64,000 bases of DNA from a virus. The notes below the pieces were generated by a model that saw only the letters and a list, made by a program, of their open reading frames with translations, ran no database searches and was not told the origin of the DNA. Location of the stretch: IMG/VR virus record IMGVR_UViG_3300034691_000037, positions 22,682-86,681 of that record, one strand, 5' to 3'. Positions 4,854-24,100 of the stretch are shown here, in pieces. The position numbers were made by a program, and so were the translations under genes. How positions within the stretch are numbered: the stretch's first letter is position 1; the number at the start of each line of letters is the position of its first letter.

Positions 4854-5251
4854 TCGAGTACCATTAATAGAAGAACTTGGGGTGTAGAGATAAACAGAGA
4901 TGTGGGCGACGAGGATGGTCTGATAAACAGTGGCTTTACTCCAGCCACATCTTCAACCATCTTCATCAGTTCCGAAAGCGCTCTCAGCGAATAACCGGCC
5001 GGTAACATTTCGGACATTTCATGAATGGCCTCATCGTAAGACAAGTAAGTGTCAGGGAACGCGGATGCTGCGTCTTCCTTAAGGAAATGATCCGGTACTT
5101 GTACAGGGACCATAAGGTTGATGGAAGTACCCGCATCCTCTTTCTTTTCTTTAATAAGGACATGTTGAGCTTCGCTGGTAGTGTTAAGGTCGTCCAGCTG
5201 TTTGCGAAAGCGCTCAATCAGGGCAATCTCGTTAGCATTGAAGTTGTTCAT
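4850..5251 (-). CDS. Hypothetical protein (start revised to MNNFN)
   Basis: ATG at 5251, just downstream of the hairpin and T tract. Confidence 0.6.
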   Translation of the reverse strand: MNNFNANEIALIERFRKQLDDLNTTSEAQHVLIKEKKEDAGTSINLMVPVQVPDHFLKEDAASAFPDTYLSYDEAIHEMSEMLPAGYSLRALSELMKMVEDVAGVKPLFIRPSSSPTSLFISTPQVLLLMVLE

Positions 5252-5280
5252 AAATAAACCTAGTTGTGTAAAAAAAGAAA

Positions 5281-5312
5281 GCATATAGCCGGGGCACTGC
5301 CCCGGCTATATG
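5281..5312. terminator. CATA...TATG-closed hairpin terminator
   Basis: CATATAGCCGGGGCA-C-TGCCCCGGCTATATG palindrome followed by a T-rich tract on -. Confidence 0.8.
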
Positions 5313-5320
5313 TCGCACAG

Positions 5321-6217
5321 TTACTTCACCGCTGCTGCTTGACGCACGTTACGCACGATGGCCTTGTCGACGACGGTCTGAAGAAGCTCAGCGTCGTTTT
5401 CGTCCATGCCTTCGAAGAACGCATTGTTGTACACGAACTGAGCACGCAGGCAATAGGTGTCCGGCCTCAGTGTGGTGGAGGTTTCGATACCGTTGGTCGA
5501 AAGAACTTCACAGGTCACGTACAGCGGATTGGAATTCGAGTCCTTGACTTTCTTGAAAGCACTGACATCGATCTCGCCGATGCGCAGGTCTTCTTTGAAC
5601 TCACCGGTAATTTCACCAGAGATCTTGCCTTGACGGCCGACGTAGATCAAACCAGCGATAGGGATGTCAATACCGCCTTTACGGATCTTGCCTTCAGCAG
5701 CAGCCTTGGCGGCCCAGCGCCAGTTCTTGAACCCGACGATGTTCAGATCTTTGTAGTCTTTGTCGATATTGCCGAAGTTACGCAGGGTGACTTCAGCGCC
5801 GGAGCCGTCAACAATGGCAACGCCCATGTTCTTGTAGTCGCTATCAGACAGGTCGGCAAAGTCTTTGACCTTGCTATTCTTGCCATGAATCCAGTAGATC
5901 GCTTCCTGGTGGGCATCGGTAGTGGAGATGTCGGTCGGCATCGGACGCGAGGTTACCGCATCGTTTTGCAGGATCGCGATATCACATTCGCCGGACTTCA
6001 GGCGGGTAGCGGAATCGACGGAACCTTTGGTGTTGACGAACTTGACAACTACCAGACTTTTGGAGTTGGACTGGATCTCGGTACCAACAACCTGGCCGAT
6101 CTGGCTGTAATAGCCTTCAGCAGCGCCGGTGCAGAACTTCAGCTCTTTGGGTTCAGAGGCAAGTGCCCCGAACGAGATGGCCATCAAGGCCAGGACAGCG
6201 TAGAACATTTTCTTCAT
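5321..6217 (-). CDS. TAXI-family TRAP solute-binding protein-like, with signal peptide
   Basis: Signal peptide MKKMFYAVLALMAISFGALA; TGAAEGYYSQIG, TKGSVDS, GECDIAILQND and GSGAEVT motifs. Confidence 0.8.
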   Translation of the reverse strand: MKKMFYAVLALMAISFGALASEPKELKFCTGAAEGYYSQIGQVVGTEIQSNSKSLVVVKFVNTKGSVDSATRLKSGECDIAILQNDAVTSRPMPTDISTTDAHQEAIYWIHGKNSKVKDFADLSDSDYKNMGVAIVDGSGAEVTLRNFGNIDKDYKDLNIVGFKNWRWAAKAAAEGKIRKGGIDIPIAGLIYVGRQGKISGEITGEFKEDLRIGEIDVSAFKKVKDSNSNPLYVTCEVLSTNGIETSTTLRPDTYCLRAQFVYNNAFFEGMDENDAELLQTVVDKAIVRNVRQAAAVK

Positions 6218-15837: not shown

Positions 15838-15908
15838 GGGGTGGTTCTCCCAATGGGTGAGTGAAACGGCATACAGCCAGCGAGTAAAACCCGCTGGCCG
15901 CGCTGCAG

Positions 15909-16280: not shown

Positions 16281-17414
16281 TTAGAATTGCTTGACCGACT
16301 GCTGATAAGGTTGATTCTTATATTCGACATCATCCTCCATGTGGCCGAATTGATGTTTGTTCACACCTGTGACGTCACGCGAACGTACTTTAAATACGTG
16401 CTCGGTAACATCGCGTTCGACGCCGATCTTCAGACCTTCGTCAATTTTCAGTTGTCAGATAGCGCCACGTCTAACTTTGCTGACGGTGGCCCACACCAGC
16501 GGTTGGCTGTAGACCACAGCGCCTGTTTTGTTTTCGGTAAGCTCCAAGGTCAGCAGGCCTTCTTCGCTCTGATCTAACCAGCCTCGGTAATCAGTGGTAC
16601 TGTTGTTGTACGTCACGTCCTTAACGGTGTAACGAATGTTGACCTTGGCGGGCAGGTTGTAGAATTCGATTTTGTTGATGAAGTCCACAGGTGTCACGCA
16701 CTTGGACAGCAGCTTCTTCATCAGAAGCAGCATATCGAAACTGATAGCGTGGTACTGCGAATACATACGCAGGTACTCAACCAGCTCAGGGCTGTGCTTA
16801 GGGTTGGCTAGCGCGGCAATGATGGTGGCTTCTTTGATACCGTCGTAGTTGATACGGTATTTGAAACGACCGGGGCGGTTCAGCATGGCGTCAACGAATT
16901 CGCGTTCGCTGTTGGCCGTGACGATGAAGAGGATGTTGCGCTTTTCGCTATCGCTGAACAGAGTCAGGACAGAGTTACGTTCTTCGCTCTTGTCGTACAC
17001 CTTGCCAAACTCATCGAACAACACGGCACAAGGGCCGAGCAGGTTGATGATGGTAGAGATGAGACTACCCGGCAATGGCGTAGTGATGTTCAGCACAGGC
17101 CGGCCTGAGTCAAGGACCATATTGCAAAGGTCTTCGGAAAGCATGGTTTTACCCGAGCCCTTCAGACCAACCAGGATCACGCCGACTGGCGAAGTGGTGC
17201 TGTTGTAATCGCTGATGATCAGATCACGGATAGTGTTGTGGTCACCGAGGGGGTCTTTCGGGATTTCGAACTGGGTACGGCCTTTGTACAGGCGAGGGCC
17301 TTCTTCCGACATCATCAGGTTGTAAACTGCGGCTGGCAGCTTATCGACCTTACGGGCCAGGTTAATATCCTGGACCAAATAGTTACTGTCTTGATCGGTA
17401 GTAATCAGGGGCAT
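16281..17414 (-). CDS. AAA+ ATPase with an in-frame TGA at 16455-16457 (readthrough or nonsense mutation)
   Basis: GLKGSGKT Walker A, LFDEF Walker B, TAN sensor and NRPGR arginine finger; the frame stays open 57 codons beyond the TGA to a TAA at 16281. Confidence 0.85.
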
Positions 17415-17427
17415 TGCAATACTCCGG

Positions 17428-18072
17428 TTAGTTGACTTCCAATGTGATCATTATGCAGCGCTTCTCGCTATACGGGAGCGCGGCAACGTAATAGCCATTA
17501 GCCATTTTAGCAAAGCCATCATTTTCACTGGCTAGCTGATTGATGTTGTTGATAAGGGTCTCTATCTTTGGGTAAGGTAGTTTCTTAGATTTGAAAAACT
17601 CAGCGGGTAGATCTTCAACAGCGGTTATCTCTGACCTTAAGGTCGTGTTTTTAGATTCTTCGACCAGGTTGAAATAGTAAACGGTAATCTTACACGCCTT
17701 AACGTTTGAACTGTCACCTGATTTAGCGGCAGCCTGCATGTCTTTTAACAACATGATTGTAGCGCTAATCAGATAGCAGTCTTTATCGACCTCGTTAGTC
17801 TCCACCCTAACGCCGATAGTTTCATCGAGCCTTAGAACCACGCCCATCAGTACACGTTCAAGGACGCTGACCAGACGGTAAACTAGAATGCCTGACACGT
17901 CCTGCTTGCCACGTTGATGCCAGCACTTTGTTTTTAGCCGGTCAAGTTGCATCCCGTGATCCATCAAAAGAAAATCTTCGCCTACGACTTCGTAACCATC
18001 GACTGCGATGTATTTATCTGCATCCGGCTCAGAGCTTAATGGTTTACGGAATTCAAATACGTTATTCATCAT
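17428..18072 (-). CDS. Hypothetical protein
   Basis: ~214 aa; GGGG SD before the ATG at 18072. Confidence 0.65.
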   Translation of the reverse strand: MMNNVFEFRKPLSSEPDADKYIAVDGYEVVGEDFLLMDHGMQLDRLKTKCWHQRGKQDVSGILVYRLVSVLERVLMGVVLRLDETIGVRVETNEVDKDCYLISATIMLLKDMQAAAKSGDSSNVKACKITVYYFNLVEESKNTTLRSEITAVEDLPAEFFKSKKLPYPKIETLINNINQLASENDGFAKMANGYYVAALPYSEKRCIMITLEVN

Positions 18073-18128
18073 AGCCCCCAAGGCGGTAAACATACTTGAT
18101 AGGGTTTTGGTATCAAGTCACTATTGCG

Positions 18129-18164
18129 ACATACAGGCAGGGCTTAACTGCCCTGCCTGTATGC
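18129..18164. terminator. CATA...TATG-closed hairpin
   Basis: CATACAGGCAGGGC-TTAACT-GCCCTGCCTGTATG. Confidence 0.75.
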
Positions 18165-18172
18165 TAGAAGTG

Positions 18173-18643
18173 TTACTTACGGGCAATCAAATCGAAGGTG
18201 TACAGATGCTTAACCGACAAGACGTCAGTGATCTCCGGATCGGGTAATTGACATGCAGCACGAATGCTGAAATGGTTGTGCGCTTGGTCAGCGCCTGTAA
18301 TGGTATCGCGCATCACTACGCCGAATGGGCCGTGGGGTCTGATGTCACCGATGATTACCGCCAACCCTGGTGATTGACGGCTTTCGATCAGGCGAATGTT
18401 ACTGGCTTCGCCACAGACACGTTCATTGTTTACAGTGCTGGCCCAGTCAGGGCGTGACAGACCACCGTTCTTTGGAACGCCCATCTCCATGTACATCTTC
18501 TTACCCTGGAGCGCTCTGACAGCCTTACGCAAGCTGTCGTTGAGTAAGTATGTCCGTCCAGTAATGCCGGTAGGTACGCCGACCTCCAGCAAGATTGATG
18601 TCTCTTGGATGGGAGCACCTGTTTGGTTATTGATAAATGACAT
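18173..18643 (-). CDS. Degenerate paralog of the S80-type prohead protease (phiKZ gp175-like), probably inactive
   Basis: GRTY...EMGVP...VNNERVC...IRPHGPFG...FSIRA...TFDL; the expected catalytic His (GHP) and Ser (SIRS) are replaced. Confidence 0.65.
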   Translation of the reverse strand: MSFINNQTGAPIQETSILLEVGVPTGITGRTYLLNDSLRKAVRALQGKKMYMEMGVPKNGGLSRPDWASTVNNERVCGEASNIRLIESRQSPGLAVIIGDIRPHGPFGVVMRDTITGADQAHNHFSIRAACQLPDPEITDVLSVKHLYTFDLIARK

Positions 18644-18909
18644 TAGTTCTGCCCTTGTGGTTCCGCTTCGGCGATAACCGAATAACGCAACCGCGTGTTT
18701 GTAAAACGACCGATCTCGACGATGGTTGACATAGACAGCTTATTCATGTCACCCAAGTAGAGGATTGAGATTTGAGTAAGTGCAATACCGCTCAGTTTAG
18801 ACACCTGACCAAGCGTGTCGCCTGTAGCCCCAAGCTGTACACACTTGGCTTCAAGCAGACCAGTCAGTAATTTACGAAGCATTTCCAGTTCTGGAGTTGT
18901 CATAAACAC
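18643..18909 (-). CDS. XRE-like helix-turn-helix protein
   Basis: TLGQVSKLSGIALTQISILYLGDMNKLSMSTI. Confidence 0.6.
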   Translation of the reverse strand: MFMTTPELEMLRKLLTGLLEAKCVQLGATGDTLGQVSKLSGIALTQISILYLGDMNKLSMSTIVEIGRFTNTRLRYSVIAEAEPQGQN

Positions 18910-18950
18910 CTCAAATAATAGGGCGGGACTACCCCGCCCTGTATGTATCG

Positions 18951-20057
18951 TTACTGAGAAAAGCCAACGCCGGTACGTTTGACGATACGGTCTTGGTGCA
19001 TTTCGTGATAGTTCAAAGCTTTCGCCAGGGTCATGGTTTTGTCATCCATATCCACCGATTCCAGTTCCATCATGTCACGCACAGCGTAGGCCTGTTCCTT
19101 CGACAGAAGTTCGAAACGAAGCACGTCGAAGCAACGACCTGGGCGTGTCAGTGCGTCGTCGGTGCCAGAGAGCGACTCCAGGTTGGTGGAGAAGATAATC
19201 TTCACATCACGACTTACAATGCCTTCAGCGGCGTTCAGGACAGCCGACATGTTGTCGTTACCCAGATCGCGAGACATCAGCAGACGGTCAGCGTCCTCAC
19301 AGATTACAACAGACCCTGCTGGACAGCCACGGATGTAGTCGGACAACCCTGGGTTCAGCAGAACATCCTGACGGTCGATCATGCTGATCTTGTCATCCCA
19401 GCCGCGTGCGTCCATCATCTGCAAGATGAAGTTAGACTTACCGGTACCCGGAGGACCAATCAGAACGAGGACGTTAGCCCTGGACTTCGCGAAAGCTGCC
19501 CAGACCTCAGCAGGCGTACGGCCAAAGTACGGGTAGAACAGAGTTTGGTTTTTGATCACGCCGATGGGTGGGATCGTTTCGATCGTCGTCGCAATCGCTT
19601 TGTCGTTCAGTGTCAGACGGCGCAGATGCGGTGTAACGCCTGTATCGATCAGCTCTTTGAATGTATCGCGGAAGTAGTTGACGAATGCATCGGTGCCGAT
19701 GACATCGTACTTGGCCTGAGTGGCGCTGGTGCTTGGATTGACGAAGGCACCGATGATTTCATCCTCGTTGATGATGAGCCGACCCATCAGGGTGCGCATG
19801 AAGCGCAGACCTTGAGGTTTGAGGATACCGTCCAGAACGACCTTGTGAATATGCCGGTCGTTCTCGCCGCCAGTTTTGCCATGGGCGATGTCGGCGGTGA
19901 GGTGCGCTTGCTGAGCATCCCAGCCTTTGCTGGAGAAGAACAGGCGGGAGATGTCGTAGATGTTATCGCCACGTAGCAATGGAAGCTGGTCGTTCCAATG
20001 CTTGATGTTATCGAGGAGGTTTTGACTTACAGGTTCTGGAATGAAATTGAGACGCAT
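18951..20057 (-). CDS. AAA+ ATPase (BCS1-like single AAA module)
   Basis: GPPGTGKS, ICEDAD, FSTN, LTRPGR; C-terminal VGF motif. Confidence 0.9.
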   Translation of the reverse strand: MRLNFIPEPVSQNLLDNIKHWNDQLPLLRGDNIYDISRLFFSSKGWDAQQAHLTADIAHGKTGGENDRHIHKVVLDGILKPQGLRFMRTLMGRLIINEDEIIGAFVNPSTSATQAKYDVIGTDAFVNYFRDTFKELIDTGVTPHLRRLTLNDKAIATTIETIPPIGVIKNQTLFYPYFGRTPAEVWAAFAKSRANVLVLIGPPGTGKSNFILQMMDARGWDDKISMIDRQDVLLNPGLSDYIRGCPAGSVVICEDADRLLMSRDLGNDNMSAVLNAAEGIVSRDVKIIFSTNLESLSGTDDALTRPGRCFDVLRFELLSKEQAYAVRDMMELESVDMDDKTMTLAKALNYHEMHQDRIVKRTGVGFSQ

Positions 20058-20104
20058 GTTAACTCCAACAGGGTTTGTTTAAATTCGATAAATAAGGTTA
20101 GGTA

Positions 20105-20311
20105 TTACGACTTTGTAAAATCTTTGCAACCACCTATGTGTACAGCAAGCATGACCTTATGAAACCTACATTGATCGCCATCAACGAAGTGACCTTCTGT
20201 CCGGAATGGCCGCGACGGACACACGGCATTATCATTGTCGATTGCGCCACTGCCGCCGTCTGGCGATGAAACCCGCGGATCGGCAAATTTCTTACGGGTT
20301 ATGTCCAACAT
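20105..20311 (-). CDS. RKK-family microprotein 7
   Basis: MLDITRKK...DGG...DFTKS; GGAG SD. Confidence 0.7.
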   Translation of the reverse strand: MLDITRKKFADPRVSSPDGGSGAIDNDNAVCPSRPFRTEGHFVDGDQCRFHKVMLAVHIGGCKDFTKS

Positions 20312-20322
20312 ATTCAACTCCG

Positions 20323-20571
20323 CTAAGGCCGGGTGTAATCACAAGAATCACCATGTCCTGAAGCTCTGTTAGCTTGGTCCTTCCTATCGATTTCGGCATC
20401 GAAGATCCAGCCGGCCTTAAATAAATCTGGGTCTGTTCTATCAGCCGGGTGACCTGGCGATAACCACCACGGATCGTTATACCCAATGCCGTCAGGTATT
20501 GTGCCATAACCGCCCTCATCGCCAGGCTTTCGTCCCCGCATGGCTTTCTTACGATGCTGATCAATCGACAT
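20323..20571 (-). CDS. RKK-family microprotein 6
   Basis: MSIDQHRKK...DEGG...DPDL...DYTRP; start revised to the ATG at 20571. Confidence 0.7.
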   Translation of the reverse strand: MSIDQHRKKAMRGRKPGDEGGYGTIPDGIGYNDPWWLSPGHPADRTDPDLFKAGWIFDAEIDRKDQANRASGHGDSCDYTRP

Positions 20572-20794
20572 GTTCTTTATCCACAGGTCTAAAATCACCA
20601 CCGCGAAAGCGCCTAGTATCTCTATCAATTGAATTGATGAGATTTTCGGGGTCTGTCGCGAAACAACCAAGGCGCCGATTACCGTCATCTGAGAAGTGGG
20701 TGGTTACTCTTTTATTCCTAACTCCGCCCTCATCTTTACTGATCATCAGATGATCGCGAGAGAGAACTTTTTTACGGTATACGTCAGCTGCCAT
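20561..20794 (-). CDS. RKK-family microprotein 5
   Basis: MAADVYRKK...DEGG...DGNR...DPE...DFRP. Confidence 0.7.
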   Translation of the reverse strand: MAADVYRKKVLSRDHLMISKDEGGVRNKRVTTHFSDDGNRRLGCFATDPENLINSIDRDTRRFRGGDFRPVDKEHVD

Positions 20795-21011
20795 GATGAG
20801 CCCTCTTAAACGGCGCGACGCCGCACACTCTGAACGGATCGAGCTCTCTGGCGGGGGTTAAGACATCCGGATCAAGTTGACCATTGCCTTCTGTGCGATT
20901 ACCGTCGTTGTAGTAATAGTCCCTCATTGTGTCAAGGGGTCTCCCACCATCGGATGATCTGCAGACCCACTCACCCGGCATTGCTTTCTTTCTGTGGTTG
21001 TCGTGACGCAT
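20784..21011 (-). CDS. RKK-family microprotein 4
   Basis: MRHDNHRKK...DGG...TMRD...DGNR...DPDV. Confidence 0.7.
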   Translation of the reverse strand: MRHDNHRKKAMPGEWVCRSSDGGRPLDTMRDYYYNDGNRTEGNGQLDPDVLTPARELDPFRVCGVAPFKRAHHGS

Positions 21012-21016
21012 GGGAG

Positions 21017-21271
21017 TTACTCCCGAGTGTAATTGGACAAATCTATTTTTTCTCTAGCCGCTTCAGCATCTTCTAGGCGAATAATGTCAAGATCAGGTTC
21101 GGTGGTGTAGTTTCCTTCGACAACGTGCCACTGCCTCATTACAAATTTCGCCTGATTAAAGTCACCGGAACGGTGAGTATCGTCAGTCATGGTTTCCCGA
21201 CCCGTGGATTCAGAAAACCAATGACAACGAGGTATATGCATCCATTTCTTTCTATCGTTACCTATGTCCAT
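21017..21271 (-). CDS. RKK-family microprotein 3
   Basis: MDIGNDRKK...GRETMTDD...PDLD...NYTRE. Confidence 0.7.
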   Translation of the reverse strand: MDIGNDRKKWMHIPRCHWFSESTGRETMTDDTHRSGDFNQAKFVMRQWHVVEGNYTTEPDLDIIRLEDAEAAREKIDLSNYTRE

Positions 21272-21276
21272 CCACA

Positions 21277-21516
21277 CTACTCCCGAGTGTAGTTCAATAA
21301 AGTGTGACGCTGGTTTACAAACTCAGCGTCCTCCTTACGAAATAGATCAAGATCGGGCTTATCGGTATACACGCCGTCGATGATGTAACCCTCTTTCATG
21401 TCAGAATAACTATAGTCACCCATGAAGTTACTGTGGTCATCAACCGTTTCCTGCCCTAACTCCATAACCAAATAAAAGCGGGATGCAGGCTCTTTCTTTC
21501 TGTCCATATCGTGCAT
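21277..21516 (-). CDS. RKK-family microprotein 2
   Basis: MHDMDRKK...GQETVDD...PDLD...NYTRE. Confidence 0.7.
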   Translation of the reverse strand: MHDMDRKKEPASRFYLVMELGQETVDDHSNFMGDYSYSDMKEGYIIDGVYTDKPDLDLFRKEDAEFVNQRHTLLNYTRE

Positions 21517-21532
21517 AATGAATTTTATCTCA

Positions 21533-21724
21533 TTAAGACTTCATGTCACAAAAACTACTGAACATGTATACGGGAGTGAACCCACTCAGGAAGCCACCGC
21601 CATCCCTATCCGTAGGAACTCGCTGATAGGGCTGCTTGTAGTCCATTATTGTCGACCTTCCACCACCATCTTCATTAAGGCTTGGCATTTCTTCTTTCTT
21701 ACGTTCTATATTTAACCTGTCCAT
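21533..21724 (-). CDS. RKK-family microprotein 1
   Basis: MDRLNIERKK...EDGGG.STIMD; GGAGGT SD at the revised start 21724. Confidence 0.65.
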   Translation of the reverse strand: MDRLNIERKKEEMPSLNEDGGGRSTIMDYKQPYQRVPTDRDGGGFLSGFTPVYMFSSFCDMKS

Positions 21725-21752
21725 AGACACCTCCAGGACGTTCTCTATTACC

Positions 21753-21767
21753 ATGATGTATTGCCGT
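21753..21767 (-). promoter_or_regulatory. Putative early promoter heading the RKK microprotein operon
   Basis: ACGGCAATACATCAT, between a hairpin and the first array gene. Confidence 0.5.
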
Positions 21768-21795
21768 AGACTTTTACAGCGATCTAACCCATACG

Positions 21796-21829
21796 GCATA
21801 TAGGCAGGGCGTACGCCCTGCCTATATGC
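21796..21829. terminator. CATA...TATG-closed perfect palindrome
   Basis: GCATATAGGCAGGGCGTACGCCCTGCCTATATGC. Confidence 0.8.
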
Positions 21830-21830
21830 T

Positions 21831-22091
21831 TTACGCAAGGTCCATTTCATTCATCAAGACCACTAAGGGTATTGTTGTAAGCTCCTTTAAGGGACTGTCC
21901 TTCTCGCTACCAATGACCACTCCCGACTCCAGGTGCATGTAGCCGTACCAACCATGTTTAATACGCCTAATTAGCAGTCCAGAATCGGGATGGCTACCCT
22001 GCACCTCGTAGAGTAACCGATCACTGTCGTTGGGTATGACGAACCTATCCCCAACTAATAGACGATGTCGATTGACCCGTATGGTTTCCAT
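21831..22091 (-). CDS. Hypothetical protein
   Basis: 86 aa, GAGG SD. Confidence 0.55.
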   Translation of the reverse strand: METIRVNRHRLLVGDRFVIPNDSDRLLYEVQGSHPDSGLLIRRIKHGWYGYMHLESGVVIGSEKDSPLKELTTIPLVVLMNEMDLA

Positions 22092-22191
22092 CCCGCAATA
22101 CCTCTGGAAGGCTCATGTCATTAACACAAAAATAAAAATAAAGCATAAAGTCAGCCTTTCGGCCGACCTATGCTTTATTGATCACCTGCAG

Positions 22192-22680
22192 TTATTCAGG
22201 CTGTGTGGCCACAAATACTTCAGCCGGTACGGTGAGATCGACCGCGGTGAGTCCCCGACCGTGGACCGCACCATCCGCCAAGTCAGACCGGGCTTTCATG
22301 AAGCCGATGGTGTCGTGTTGGTGGTCGTGTAGTTCATGACCACCAACTGTCTTATCGGCAGGGGTGCGTGCCGATACAACGGCGAACTCGCCACGGCGCA
22401 ACCCGCCATCATCAACTGGCACCAATCCCAGATCTTCAGCCGTCTGAACGTATTTGGTCCGACCGCGCTGTAAACCCAGGTCTTCGGCAGTCTGGGCGTC
22501 CAGCATGTCCGACACTGGCTCGGATGTACCCGGAGTGCGACCATACGTCACGTTATCAGGCAACAGCGATGGGAGCAGCATGCGGTTCTTGGCATTCAGC
22601 TCTTCCAGTTGCCGATGCATTTCGTACTGTGCGTTGTGACGTTCAACTGCTTGTTGCTTGCGGACTTTATTACGACTCAT
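22192..22680 (-). CDS. Hypothetical protein with an internal QTAEDLGL duplication and a degenerate DnaB-like P-loop
   Basis: QTAEDLGL twice; GGLRRGEFAVVSARTPADKT. Confidence 0.6.
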   Translation of the reverse strand: MSRNKVRKQQAVERHNAQYEMHRQLEELNAKNRMLLPSLLPDNVTYGRTPGTSEPVSDMLDAQTAEDLGLQRGRTKYVQTAEDLGLVPVDDGGLRRGEFAVVSARTPADKTVGGHELHDHQHDTIGFMKARSDLADGAVHGRGLTAVDLTVPAEVFVATQPE

Positions 22681-22695
22681 GACAATATACCTTTA

Positions 22696-23007
22696 TTAAC
22701 GTTCGAGATGAACCGTGTGGGGCAGGTAGCCGAAACACGTTCCGATAGAGTTCTTATCCAGCTTGATATATTCCTCCCAAGCCAGTTCGATGCGCGCATT
22801 ACTCAGATACACTATCTGAACGTGGTCAGGTGAGATATGGCTGATCCCATACACCACGTACCCATGCTGACAAATGAGTTTAGTAAATGAACCCGCTACA
22901 GCGTGCGCAGGGACCTGAACAACACCATGCTCGTTCGTGACCGAGTGGTGGTCAACAATCACGGGTTCGTACGCGATTGGAAGATCCGACCGTCTGAAGT
23001 TGATCAT
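22696..23007 (-). CDS. Hypothetical protein
   Basis: 103 aa, ATGA coupling. Confidence 0.6.
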   Translation of the reverse strand: MINFRRSDLPIAYEPVIVDHHSVTNEHGVVQVPAHAVAGSFTKLICQHGYVVYGISHISPDHVQIVYLSNARIELAWEEYIKLDKNSIGTCFGYLPHTVHLER

Positions 23008-23483
23008 TGCACCACCTTCCGTCGTTCGGCTTCTTCTTTCTCAAACTTCTTGCGGTTGTAATCGTTGAAGTCATCAATCGACATGAAGCAGCTTGGGATG
23101 GCGTGGACACACCGATGTCCCGCATCCTGAATTATCTGCGCACAGATCCCGCGTTTAACTTGCCGGGATGGGCCAACGACCAATACCACATAGGCCTTTG
23201 TGATTTCGTACAGGTTTCGGATAACGAAGACTACTCGTTTACCTTCCCACTCATCAAGAAATGCCCGGACGGCTCGCTTTTCTTCCTTGATATCCACGGC
23301 CTCAGACAGGAGTTCCTGCTCTCGCTGTATGCGACGCCAGTAGTTAAACTTACGGACGTGTCGGTCAATCTTTGCAACCTCCTTGGCTGGAAGTGCGTGC
23401 AGCTTACCGCGAGCAGCGTTGATCAACGATTCGTAATGCTCGGTCGACATTACAACCTGGTGGTGGTCTTTATTCTCTTTCAT
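23004..23483 (-). CDS. Hypothetical protein
   Basis: 159 aa, ATGA coupling. Confidence 0.65.
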   Translation of the reverse strand: MKENKDHHQVVMSTEHYESLINAARGKLHALPAKEVAKIDRHVRKFNYWRRIQREQELLSEAVDIKEEKRAVRAFLDEWEGKRVVFVIRNLYEITKAYVVLVVGPSRQVKRGICAQIIQDAGHRCVHAIPSCFMSIDDFNDYNRKKFEKEEAERRKVVQ

Positions 23484-23854
23484 GCTGCGGCGTCCTCTTC
23501 ATCATCCTCTTTAACCTCTGCGTCACGAATACCAACGCCGACGTCTTTGGTGAGGAAGCTCTGCAGATCCTGGGAGATACGAGATGCCAGGATTTCAGGT
23601 TCACGCTTATCCGCGAAATAGATCATGAGATCAGTCTTCAGGTACTTGCGCTTCTTGTTGTAAACTGCAATCAGCTTAAGATCAATGCCGATGCGTTCAA
23701 GCATCGAGATCCTTTCAGCCATCGGCAGACGACCTGCAACCGTTTCTTTCTTGCTGAAGAACCAGGTGTACAGGGCGAGGATGGCCGCAGCGTAATCCTT
23801 GTTTACCAGTTCGGCTTGGGCTTTTTCAAACATAGCTGTGTCACTTTTGCGCAT
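23480..23854 (-). CDS. Hypothetical protein with an acidic tail
   Basis: 124 aa, GGAG SD. Confidence 0.65.
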   Translation of the reverse strand: MRKSDTAMFEKAQAELVNKDYAAAILALYTWFFSKKETVAGRLPMAERISMLERIGIDLKLIAVYNKKRKYLKTDLMIYFADKREPEILASRISQDLQSFLTKDVGVGIRDAEVKEDDEEDAAA

Positions 23855-23875
23855 GATAAATCTCCAGGGCGTGTG

Positions 23876-24100
23876 TTATTTAGAGGCGTCTGACTTAGCA
23901 CGCATCCAGCAAAGTCGGTAGGTGGAATCGAGGTGGTCTTGACCATGACCTTTAGCGCGTTCGAACTCAACACACTTATCCATGCTGGCCACAACCGTAT
24001 TGCCGACATCCCGCTGATGAATCCAGTGGGGCGTCACGATTGTTACGAATACAACAAAGAGGATGAGTAAGATAACTGATCCCCATGCACGAGCTGACAT
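23876..24100 (-). CDS. Small membrane protein
   Basis: N-terminal TM helix and two Cys residues. Confidence 0.6.
   Translation of the reverse strand: MSARAWGSVILLILFVVFVTIVTPHWIHQRDVGNTVVASMDKCVEFERAKGHGQDHLDSTYRLCWMRAKSDASK

Follow-up and report, generated by a model that had tools for sequence, protein, structure and literature searches.

How does a phage come to keep a row of small, divergent proteins beside a single ATPase, and what might the two have to do with each other? The question is raised by a 64-kb stretch of viral DNA (hereafter, the window) taken from an 86.7-kb IMG/VR virus record, IMGVR_UViG_3300034691_000037, that is judged 35% complete. On the minus strand of the window, seven consecutive genes encode microproteins of 63–84 amino acids (aa), each of which carries the tripeptide Arg-Lys-Lys (the RKK tag) near its N terminus, and a gene for an AAA ATPase follows directly downstream. 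Sequence comparison leads us to regard these RKK units as a family of small proteins, constant at their ends, that has not been described before. A proposed partnership with the ATPase, which is of the type represented by phage phiKZ gp208, is supported by comparative genomics. Specifically, the tie between array and ATPase that a preliminary description of this DNA had proposed is borne out by genetic linkage in five phage lineages, by the lack of copies elsewhere in the searched genomes, and by in-frame fusions in two lineages.

Seven small proteins with constant ends

The seven genes are all present as first described, separated by gaps of 5–16 nucleotides (nt) or joined by 11-nt overlaps. 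Three of their starts, which lay hidden in longer open reading frame (ORF) calls, were shifted to internal ATGs. Read in the coding direction, the units are m1 (21533–21724, 63 aa), m2 (21277–21516, 79 aa), m3 (21017–21271, 84 aa from its ATG), m4 (20784–21011, 75 aa), m5 (20561–20794, 77 aa, overlapping both m4 and m6 by 11 nt), m6 (20323–20571, 82 aa), and m7 (20105–20311, 68 aa from its ATG), the last before the ATPase. A ribosome-binding site of the GGAG type precedes most of the seven, and in m1 it is the Shine–Dalgarno sequence GGAGG.

RKK falls at residues 6–10 in all seven units. The window, searched on both strands, has 361 ATG-started ORFs of 50–110 aa, and RKK at residues 4–12 is a property of these seven and no others. 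The other recurrent motifs of the preliminary description are found as well: DGG or G.ET, DPD or PDL in five copies, and, at the C terminus, NYTRE in m2 and m3, DYTRP in m6, DFTKS in m7, and DFRP. In leave-one-out searches with a hidden Markov model, six of the seven units score above all 500 composition-matched shuffles, and the score of m5 is reached by 11 of the 500. The suspected sub-pairs are also real, with m2 and its paralog m3 being 41% identical and m4 and m5 31% identical. The first unit, m1, has the RKK tag and the DGGG and T.MD anchors, and the family profile matches its residues 1–30 only; its C-terminal half is unique and has no C-terminal motif, and its body is missing from relatives with six copies. 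We rejected the idea that m1 is a frameshifted copy, as its other two frames are closed and match nothing. An additional ORF of 90 aa (20292–20564, minus strand) lies over m6 in another frame and is open both in the window and in the sister phage G001; its frame is 76% conserved versus 88% for the m6 frame, and it is probably non-coding.

Database searches place the family in a very small circle. Searches of Pfam, PHROGs, and PADLOC with all seven units, of PDB sequences with the family profile, of the ESM Atlas with the units, and of 50,697 phage records by tblastn with m2 yielded no match. The family profile had 14 matches among 1.84 billion representative proteins, and 12 of them lie in the same narrow phage group; that search brought up close kin only, and the statement that no described family could be recognized has held. 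The remaining two were set aside as probably spurious. One, P0021, is a repeat protein that aligned only to profile positions 3–17; its 648 aa comprise nine copies of a 70-aa unit containing HDIHRKKELD, and the match looks like one of chance or low complexity. The other, P0013, is 5033 aa long and has no matched stretch.

The units are very hydrophilic (grand average of hydropathy about −1), rich in Asp (12.7%), Arg (8.9%), and Gly (8.1%), and poor in Cys, a composition with no sign of a membrane segment, which agrees with the absence of transmembrane helices noted earlier. AlphaFold2 gave a predicted local distance difference test score (pLDDT) of 53 and a predicted template modeling score (pTM) of 0.16 for m6, from an alignment of 31 rows, and a pLDDT of 47 and a pTM of 0.18 for m2, from 19 rows. 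The low model confidence, together with the composition, suggests that the units are intrinsically disordered or fold only on a partner.

Could a row of constant-ended, variable-centered peptides be a set of precursors? Some loci for ribosomally synthesized and post-translationally modified peptides (RiPPs) have a constant leader, a variable core, and several precursors in a row, and the array resembles them in this respect. The RKK-bearing end would then be the leader, the variable part would be the core, and the ATPase would assist in processing. The units are, however, long (63–116 aa across the phages compared), hydrophilic, and Cys-poor, and they have conserved motifs at both ends. Moreover, neither the transcription unit nor its neighbors show a modifying enzyme family: the only matches are to AAA, a weak HTH, Peptidase_S80, and TPR. 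The precursor idea, which had been raised in the preliminary description, thus fared badly for want of a modifying enzyme nearby, and we consider it extremely improbable.

Selection on the units was gauged against orthologs in G001, a complete or nearly complete relative of the window phage (237 kb, array locus L003) that has six copies and an ATPase 98% identical to the window's. The ratio of nonsynonymous to synonymous substitution rates (dN/dS), a check suggested at the outset, is below 1 wherever it can be measured. It lies at 0.04–0.42 for five units, namely 0.42 for m2, 0.21 for m4, 0.15 for m5 (with saturated dS), 0.20 for m6, and 0.04 for m7; the ATPase has 0.03. We regard the seven units as real coding genes under purifying selection.

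Identity to the G001 orthologs ranges widely, from 97% for m7 to 49% for m5 and 38% for m3. The synonymous distance is saturated for m3 and m5 while the flanks have a dS of 0.2–0.3, and the differences in these two genes are therefore best read as deep alleles brought in by recombination, a mosaic replacement, and not as fast local mutation. Alleles of m5 closer than that of G001 exist (P0008 and P0011). Alleles from further metagenomes fall into the same m2-like, m3-like, m5-like, and m6-like subfamilies, which indicates that each paralog is an orthologous lineage with its own conserved positions. The homologs are P0003, P0006, and P0015 for m2; P0001, with P0017 as a relative, for m3; P0012 for m7; and P0007, P0009, P0016, P0019, P0020, and P0022 for m6, the best-populated subfamily. 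In view of these distinct orthologous subfamilies, the purifying selection, the ortholog identities of 38–97%, and the deep allele replacements, the earlier label of a hypervariable library was an overstatement.

Copy number, by comparison of these sequences, changes at the tag. A stretch of 202 nt (21503–21704) is missing in G001 and in a landfill contig, with the result that the m1 head continues into the m2 body, the junction falling precisely on the RKK codons. A diversity-generating retroelement was considered as a source of the variation and rejected: no near-identical repeat pair occurs in 17900–22400 and no adenine-specific changes were seen, though a reverse transcriptase was not searched for. 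The changes that separate the window from its landfill counterpart are transitions of the ordinary kind (A>G 61, G>A 64, C>T 47, T>C 41). Two genes that neighbor the transcription unit on its upstream side match the most divergent units in their distance from G001, one at 22192–22680 (minus strand, 55% identity, with a 45-aa difference in length) and one at 22696–23007 (minus strand, 46% identity).

One may ask whether the conserved element works on the RNA rather than in the protein. A-rich codons after the start could boost initiation or translational coupling, leaving the proteins themselves as unconstrained ORFans. The two Lys residues are mostly encoded AAG AAA, the genes are tightly coupled or overlapping, and the NYTRE codons partly double as the Shine–Dalgarno sequence of the next gene, all of which such a role would accommodate. 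The codons for the tag Arg argue otherwise. In 25 units from four genomes, they are CGT (11), AGA (10), CGC (2), CGG (1), and CGA (1); because five codons from both codon families are used, the tag is selected as a peptide rather than as a motif in the DNA. The position three residues before the Arg also stays acidic or amide, dN/dS is well below 1 along whole genes, and internal motifs are kept within orthologous subfamilies. An element acting in RNA or translation is accordingly very unlikely in our estimation.

A constant neighbor of the gp208 type

The gene downstream of the array (18951–20057, minus strand) encodes a 368-aa protein that matches PF00004 with an E value of 7.8e-6 and phrog_14322 with an E value of 1e-100. 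In the 50,697 phage records it is most similar to gp308 of Pseudomonas phage Phabio (47% identity) and to phiKZ gp208 (38%), and its sequence identifies it as the ortholog of both. Its translation contains the motifs of a classical AAA module: GPPGTGKS, the ED-type Walker B motif ICEDAD, and TRPGRCF with the RPGR arginines. All five of its PDB matches are to BCS1, the mitochondrial Bcs1 protein (best E value 3.6e-9). The Bcs1 N-terminal domain is absent among the 13 Pfam families listed at E values up to 1, and residues 1–190 match nothing; since Pfam sees no such domain, we describe the ATPase as Bcs1-like in its AAA module only.

ATPases of the gp208 type are conserved across phiKZ-like phages, and the literature that we searched assigns them no function. 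An antisense-oligomer screen for essential phage proteins included phiKZ gp208 among its targets; of two read-outs, knock-down left one unchanged and altered the other weakly, and the protein is without an assigned function (PMC12571901). A metagenome scan with the ATPase alignment recovered distant AAA proteins only, and a viral scan with P0030 found nothing. Distant homologs of about 387 aa on small viral contigs (L010, L014–L020, L022, and L026) carry a basic patch, ..GRRKKRVLKRF.., some 30 residues from the N terminus.

Arrays of 6–8 RKK units lie directly upstream of the orthologous ATPase gene in five lineages: the window phage, G001, G002 (the second complete or nearly complete relative analyzed in full, 248.6 kb, with its array at locus L005), L027 (a 307-kb genome), and L064 (a 243-kb genome). 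The G002 array comprises seven units plus one more, the L027 array six plus one more, and the L064 array seven of 73–116 aa. The bodies of the units in G002, L027, and L064 are barely or not recognizable beyond the tag. Between lineages, the ATPases of the array-bearing phages share 46–63% identity, and in a tree they form one group. Three further ATPase carriers, namely Phabio (L001/L006), L007 (a 325-kb phage), and a phiKZ-type phage, have no RKK units. Their ATPases fall outside the RKK-array group, and although gp208 and Phabio gp308 are orthologs of the window's ATPase, neither has RKK units upstream, nor does that of L007.

On the other side of the array, the neighbor varies. In the window, it is a gene for an 86-aa protein (21831–22091, minus strand) that is not a member of the family and is 99% identical in G001 and 83% identical in G002. 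This gene is absent upstream of the L027 and L064 arrays, where its place is taken by a gp203-like helicase on the other strand and by a phosphoesterase-like gene with a membrane protein, respectively. The downstream ATPase is constant throughout. Searches of G000, G001, and G002 with the family profile found no copy outside the array, and N-terminal RKK outside the array occurs at about the estimated chance level in the two complete genomes.

The last RKK unit of G002 and that of L027 lack a stop codon, and each continues without a break in the frame of the ATPase. Homologs retrieved with the ATPase include three diverged 451-aa proteins (P0023, P0024, and P0025) and one 437-aa protein from L027 (P0031), all with an RKK-tagged extension, the fused unit amounting to 70–82 aa. 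The extension is 40–55% identical where the ATPase body is 81–85% identical. Because several motifs are kept and insertions and deletions preserve the frame across these diverged sequences, the extension can be taken as translated sequence and not as an accident of one assembly. A strong Shine–Dalgarno sequence stands before an internal ATG of the ATPase in L005, and both long and short forms of the enzyme may be made there.

Synteny alone could be the whole story if the units were ordinary lineage-specific accessory genes, serving host takeover or anti-defense with no tie to the ATPase, their adjacency inherited and the fusions inconsequential losses of a stop codon. The slot may simply tolerate small genes, as unrelated small-ORF arrays occupy it in Phabio and L007, and knock-down of phiKZ gp208 had only a slight effect (PMC12571901). 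Yet the junction between array and ATPase is kept at 46–63% ATPase identity despite turnover upstream, the fused extension retains frame, length, and motifs in four diverged sequences, and conservation of the tag far exceeds that of the remaining sequence. We judge the proposal unlikely. As for the arrays in that slot, that of Phabio (2025–3360 of L001), likewise in front of the ATPase, consists of five paralogs that share an EAR.EN motif, and an RNA ligase comes after them. L007 has four ORFs rich in Asp, Arg, and Gly at 4904–5923, before the same ATPase, and two of them begin M-R-x-x-E-P-x-N-x-x-R-K. Profile–profile comparison showed no similarity of either array to the RKK family, and we regard them as positional analogues only.

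Lineage-specific paralog arrays of jumbo phages offer a related comparison. They share with the RKK array the tight packing, the fast-diverging small paralogs, the restriction to one phage group, and the changes in copy number. The RKK array differs from them in that its tag outlasts all other similarity and in that it stays with one fixed partner gene, at 46–63% ATPase identity and with in-frame fusions.

Candidate roles for the units and their tag

What, then, could the units do? The reading that we prefer, with a confidence that stops somewhat short of even, is that they serve the Bcs1-like ATPase as tagged accessory modules, whether adaptors, regulators, or clients. The units would meet the ATPase via their constant parts, comprising the N-terminal [DN]-x-x-R-K-K, the anchors DGG or G.ET and DPD, and often the C-terminal [DN][YF]T[RK], and the divergent, hydrophilic middles would face different targets. 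Because the window and G001 have almost the same ATPase but deeply different m3 and m5 alleles, any contact between unit and ATPase would be made only through the constant ends. In the sister clades, the last unit would have become, or stayed, a covalent N-terminal extension of the ATPase. The family may have originated by duplication of such an extension, or the ATPase may have captured one unit; the fused forms fit. Three elements of this reading go beyond the genetic evidence and are inferred: that units and ATPase touch, whether a unit acts as adaptor or as client, and that it has a target at all.

AAA machines are usually steered by small partners with short terminal recognition motifs. 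Compared with the adaptors and clients of classical AAA unfoldases or translocases, the present system involves an ATPase that also has a classical AAA module, one whose PDB matches are to Bcs1 only. In the libraries and literature that we searched, a tandem family of 6–8 diversified partners is not described for such an ATPase.

Several points weigh against the accessory-module reading. The ATPase is retained in phiKZ, Phabio, and L007, where RKK units are lacking, and the units are therefore not obligatory for its core function. Among phages that are related, conserved adjacency may amount to no more than synteny. Given the internal Shine–Dalgarno sequence in L005, the fused form may be a minor product. 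The first unit, m1, is without the C-terminal half of the family. Finally, the presence of the tag on the units and on some of the ATPases fits a common localization signal equally well.

This last point deserves attention, as a precedent exists. The internal proteins of T-even phages (IPI, IPII, IPIII, and relatives) are small, diverse products of adjacent genes that have a short conserved N-terminal tag and that differ between related phages (PMC3012670). By analogy, the RKK tag would be a signal for localization or packaging, like the T-even capsid targeting sequence, and the units would be independent, fast-evolving effectors, e.g., anti-defense proteins, that accompany the DNA on delivery or are directed to a single compartment. 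For the ATPase, this would mean the part of a neighbor, itself tagged in some clades. The constant N-terminal tag on diverse tandem small proteins, as in T4 (PMC3012670), speaks for such a signal, and so do the tagging of the ATPase in two clades, which fits co-localization, and the mosaic allele replacement and copy-number change between strains, as would be expected in an arms race.

The likeness to the T-even internal proteins is one of design only: a constant short N-terminal tag, diverse tandem proteins, and diversity between strains. The units have no sequence similarity to known internal proteins in Pfam or PHROGs, are predicted to be disordered, and adjoin an ATPase to which they are sometimes fused, a link that the T4 internal proteins do not have. 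Proteolytic processing is a further point of comparison, and a partial Peptidase_S80 protein encoded two genes downstream of the ATPase has been counted in favor of a packaging signal. This 156-aa protein (18173–18643, minus strand) matches Peptidase_S80, the family of the phiKZ prohead protease, with an E value of 3e-8 over profile positions 56–174 of 229, and its sequence is too short for a full protease.

Prohead proteases of the phiKZ type recognize the motif S/A/G-x-E. By eye, S/A/G-x-E follows the tag in m2, m3, and m6, and none lies near the tag in m1, m4, m5, or m7, the phiKZ motif being one that may not be this phage's own. On that motif, a consistent protease site after the RKK tag may be lacking, as only some units have one there. 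A general address tag would also be expected on more cargo, whereas the two complete genomes hold no further tagged proteins beyond chance. Strict adjacency to one ATPase over five lineages would be left unexplained. On balance, a localization signal seems to us a doubtful account, albeit the strongest of the alternatives to the accessory-module reading.

A more far-reaching reading makes the RKK tag the recognition signal of a Bcs1-like AAA translocase of phiKZ-related phages. The enzyme would move or remodel diversified, strain-specific small disordered effectors, and these might cross the phage nuclear shell or an early infection vesicle or enter the capsid. The N-terminal module of the ATPase itself would, in some clades, be a unit of this kind. 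We regard this version as quite unlikely as it stands. If it were true, jumbo phages would have a new system for handling proteins by way of a tag, and the gp208-type ATPase would gain a first function.

The more general possibilities have implications of their own. Tagged, probably disordered microproteins that are linked, and at times fused, to a gp208-type ATPase provide a concrete handle on that enzyme. If the units are clients or adaptors, duplication of a short-tagged module, with exchange of its alleles between strains, would be a means by which a phage diversifies the specificity of a single ATP-driven machine. If the tag serves instead as an address label, phages would have a second minimal sorting signal, after the T4 capsid targeting sequence.

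Expression signals and phage context

Are array and ATPase expressed together? We read them as one transcription unit, because a promoter-like motif lies upstream, the spacing is tight or overlapping, no terminator precedes the ATPase, and a hairpin follows it. Specifically, the 47-nt gap between m7 and the ATPase has no terminator-like site, and a GC-rich hairpin with a T-rich tail (18920–18940, minus strand) stands 3' of the ATPase gene, where its terminator-like form would close the unit. Both observations agree with the preliminary description. A peat metatranscriptome contains contigs of low depth that are 100% identical over the ATPase and parts of m1–m4 and m6. They lend weak support to transcription of the array and the ATPase, as carry-over of DNA is possible; array parts without contig cover carry no evidential weight.

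The promoter-like motif, AATACATCAT, occupies 21753–21762 on the minus strand, and some 29 nt separate it from the m1 gene downstream. It had been described as an early-promoter motif. Its nature as a recurrent motif upstream of genes stands: three copies occur in the window (16255, 21753, and 30420) against 0.22 expected, all on the minus strand and upstream of a gene, and the motif recurs unaltered in L003 and with a single change in L005. Its assignment to the early class was not confirmed. In phiKZ-like phages, promoters of the vRNAP are described only as extended AT-rich elements (PMC5312081). A scan for the sigma-70 consensus gave hits at chance level only, k-mer over-representation revealed no strong motif, and Rfam searches of 17000–24000 returned chance-level matches only.

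The hairpin noted at 21796 is a perfect 17+17 palindrome (21796–21829) that follows immediately on the stop codon of the 86-aa gene. Its pairing is kept via compensatory changes in three phages, the changes being seen in L003 and L005. At least ten similar intergenic hairpins are present in the window, a family whose lower stem is conserved as GCATAnAG...CTnTATGC, and its members, including this one, are probable terminators of the window phage. The GC-rich upper stems are variable, and the lower stem and flank are conserved (..CATAnAG [stem-loop] CTnTATGCYGT). Examples lie at 15876, 18136, 21803, 30455, 39472, 45939, 48494, and 56740 on the minus strand and at 59, 56760, and 62153 on the plus strand. 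The TATG after the hairpins was considered as a late promoter of the phiKZ type and rejected, since TATGC is the lower stem of the palindromes.

As for the phage itself, megablast of the whole stretch against the 50,697 phage records gave no match. Both G001 and G002 encode homologs of the phiKZ DNA polymerase gp50, the RNA polymerase subunit gp55, gp68, and gp69. The L027 genome has a clear homolog of the nuclear-shell protein ChmA (46% identity). In addition, ORFs of 651 and 653 aa (94026–95981 of G001 and 68830–70791 of G002) hold a syntenic position beside the gp55 homolog. Their similarity to phiKZ ChmA is weak, with E values of 1.7e-8 and 3.9e-5 from a small candidate set, and they may encode a very divergent nuclear-shell protein. 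From the gp50, gp55, gp68, and gp69 homologs, the ChmA-like ORFs of G001 and G002, and the ChmA homolog of L027, we place the window phage among the jumbo-phage relatives of phiKZ and consider it probably nucleus-forming. The phage is uncultured; its DNA is present in peat metagenomes, and a close relative occurs in landfill metagenomes.

Finally, the window encodes a second classical AAA ATPase (PF00004) at 16455–17414 on the minus strand. It is 319 aa long, and its ortholog in G001 (L003 8645–9778) has 377 aa. Because the G001 ortholog is longer, the stop codon at 16455–16457 is specific to the window phage, which fits a recent nonsense change or readthrough.

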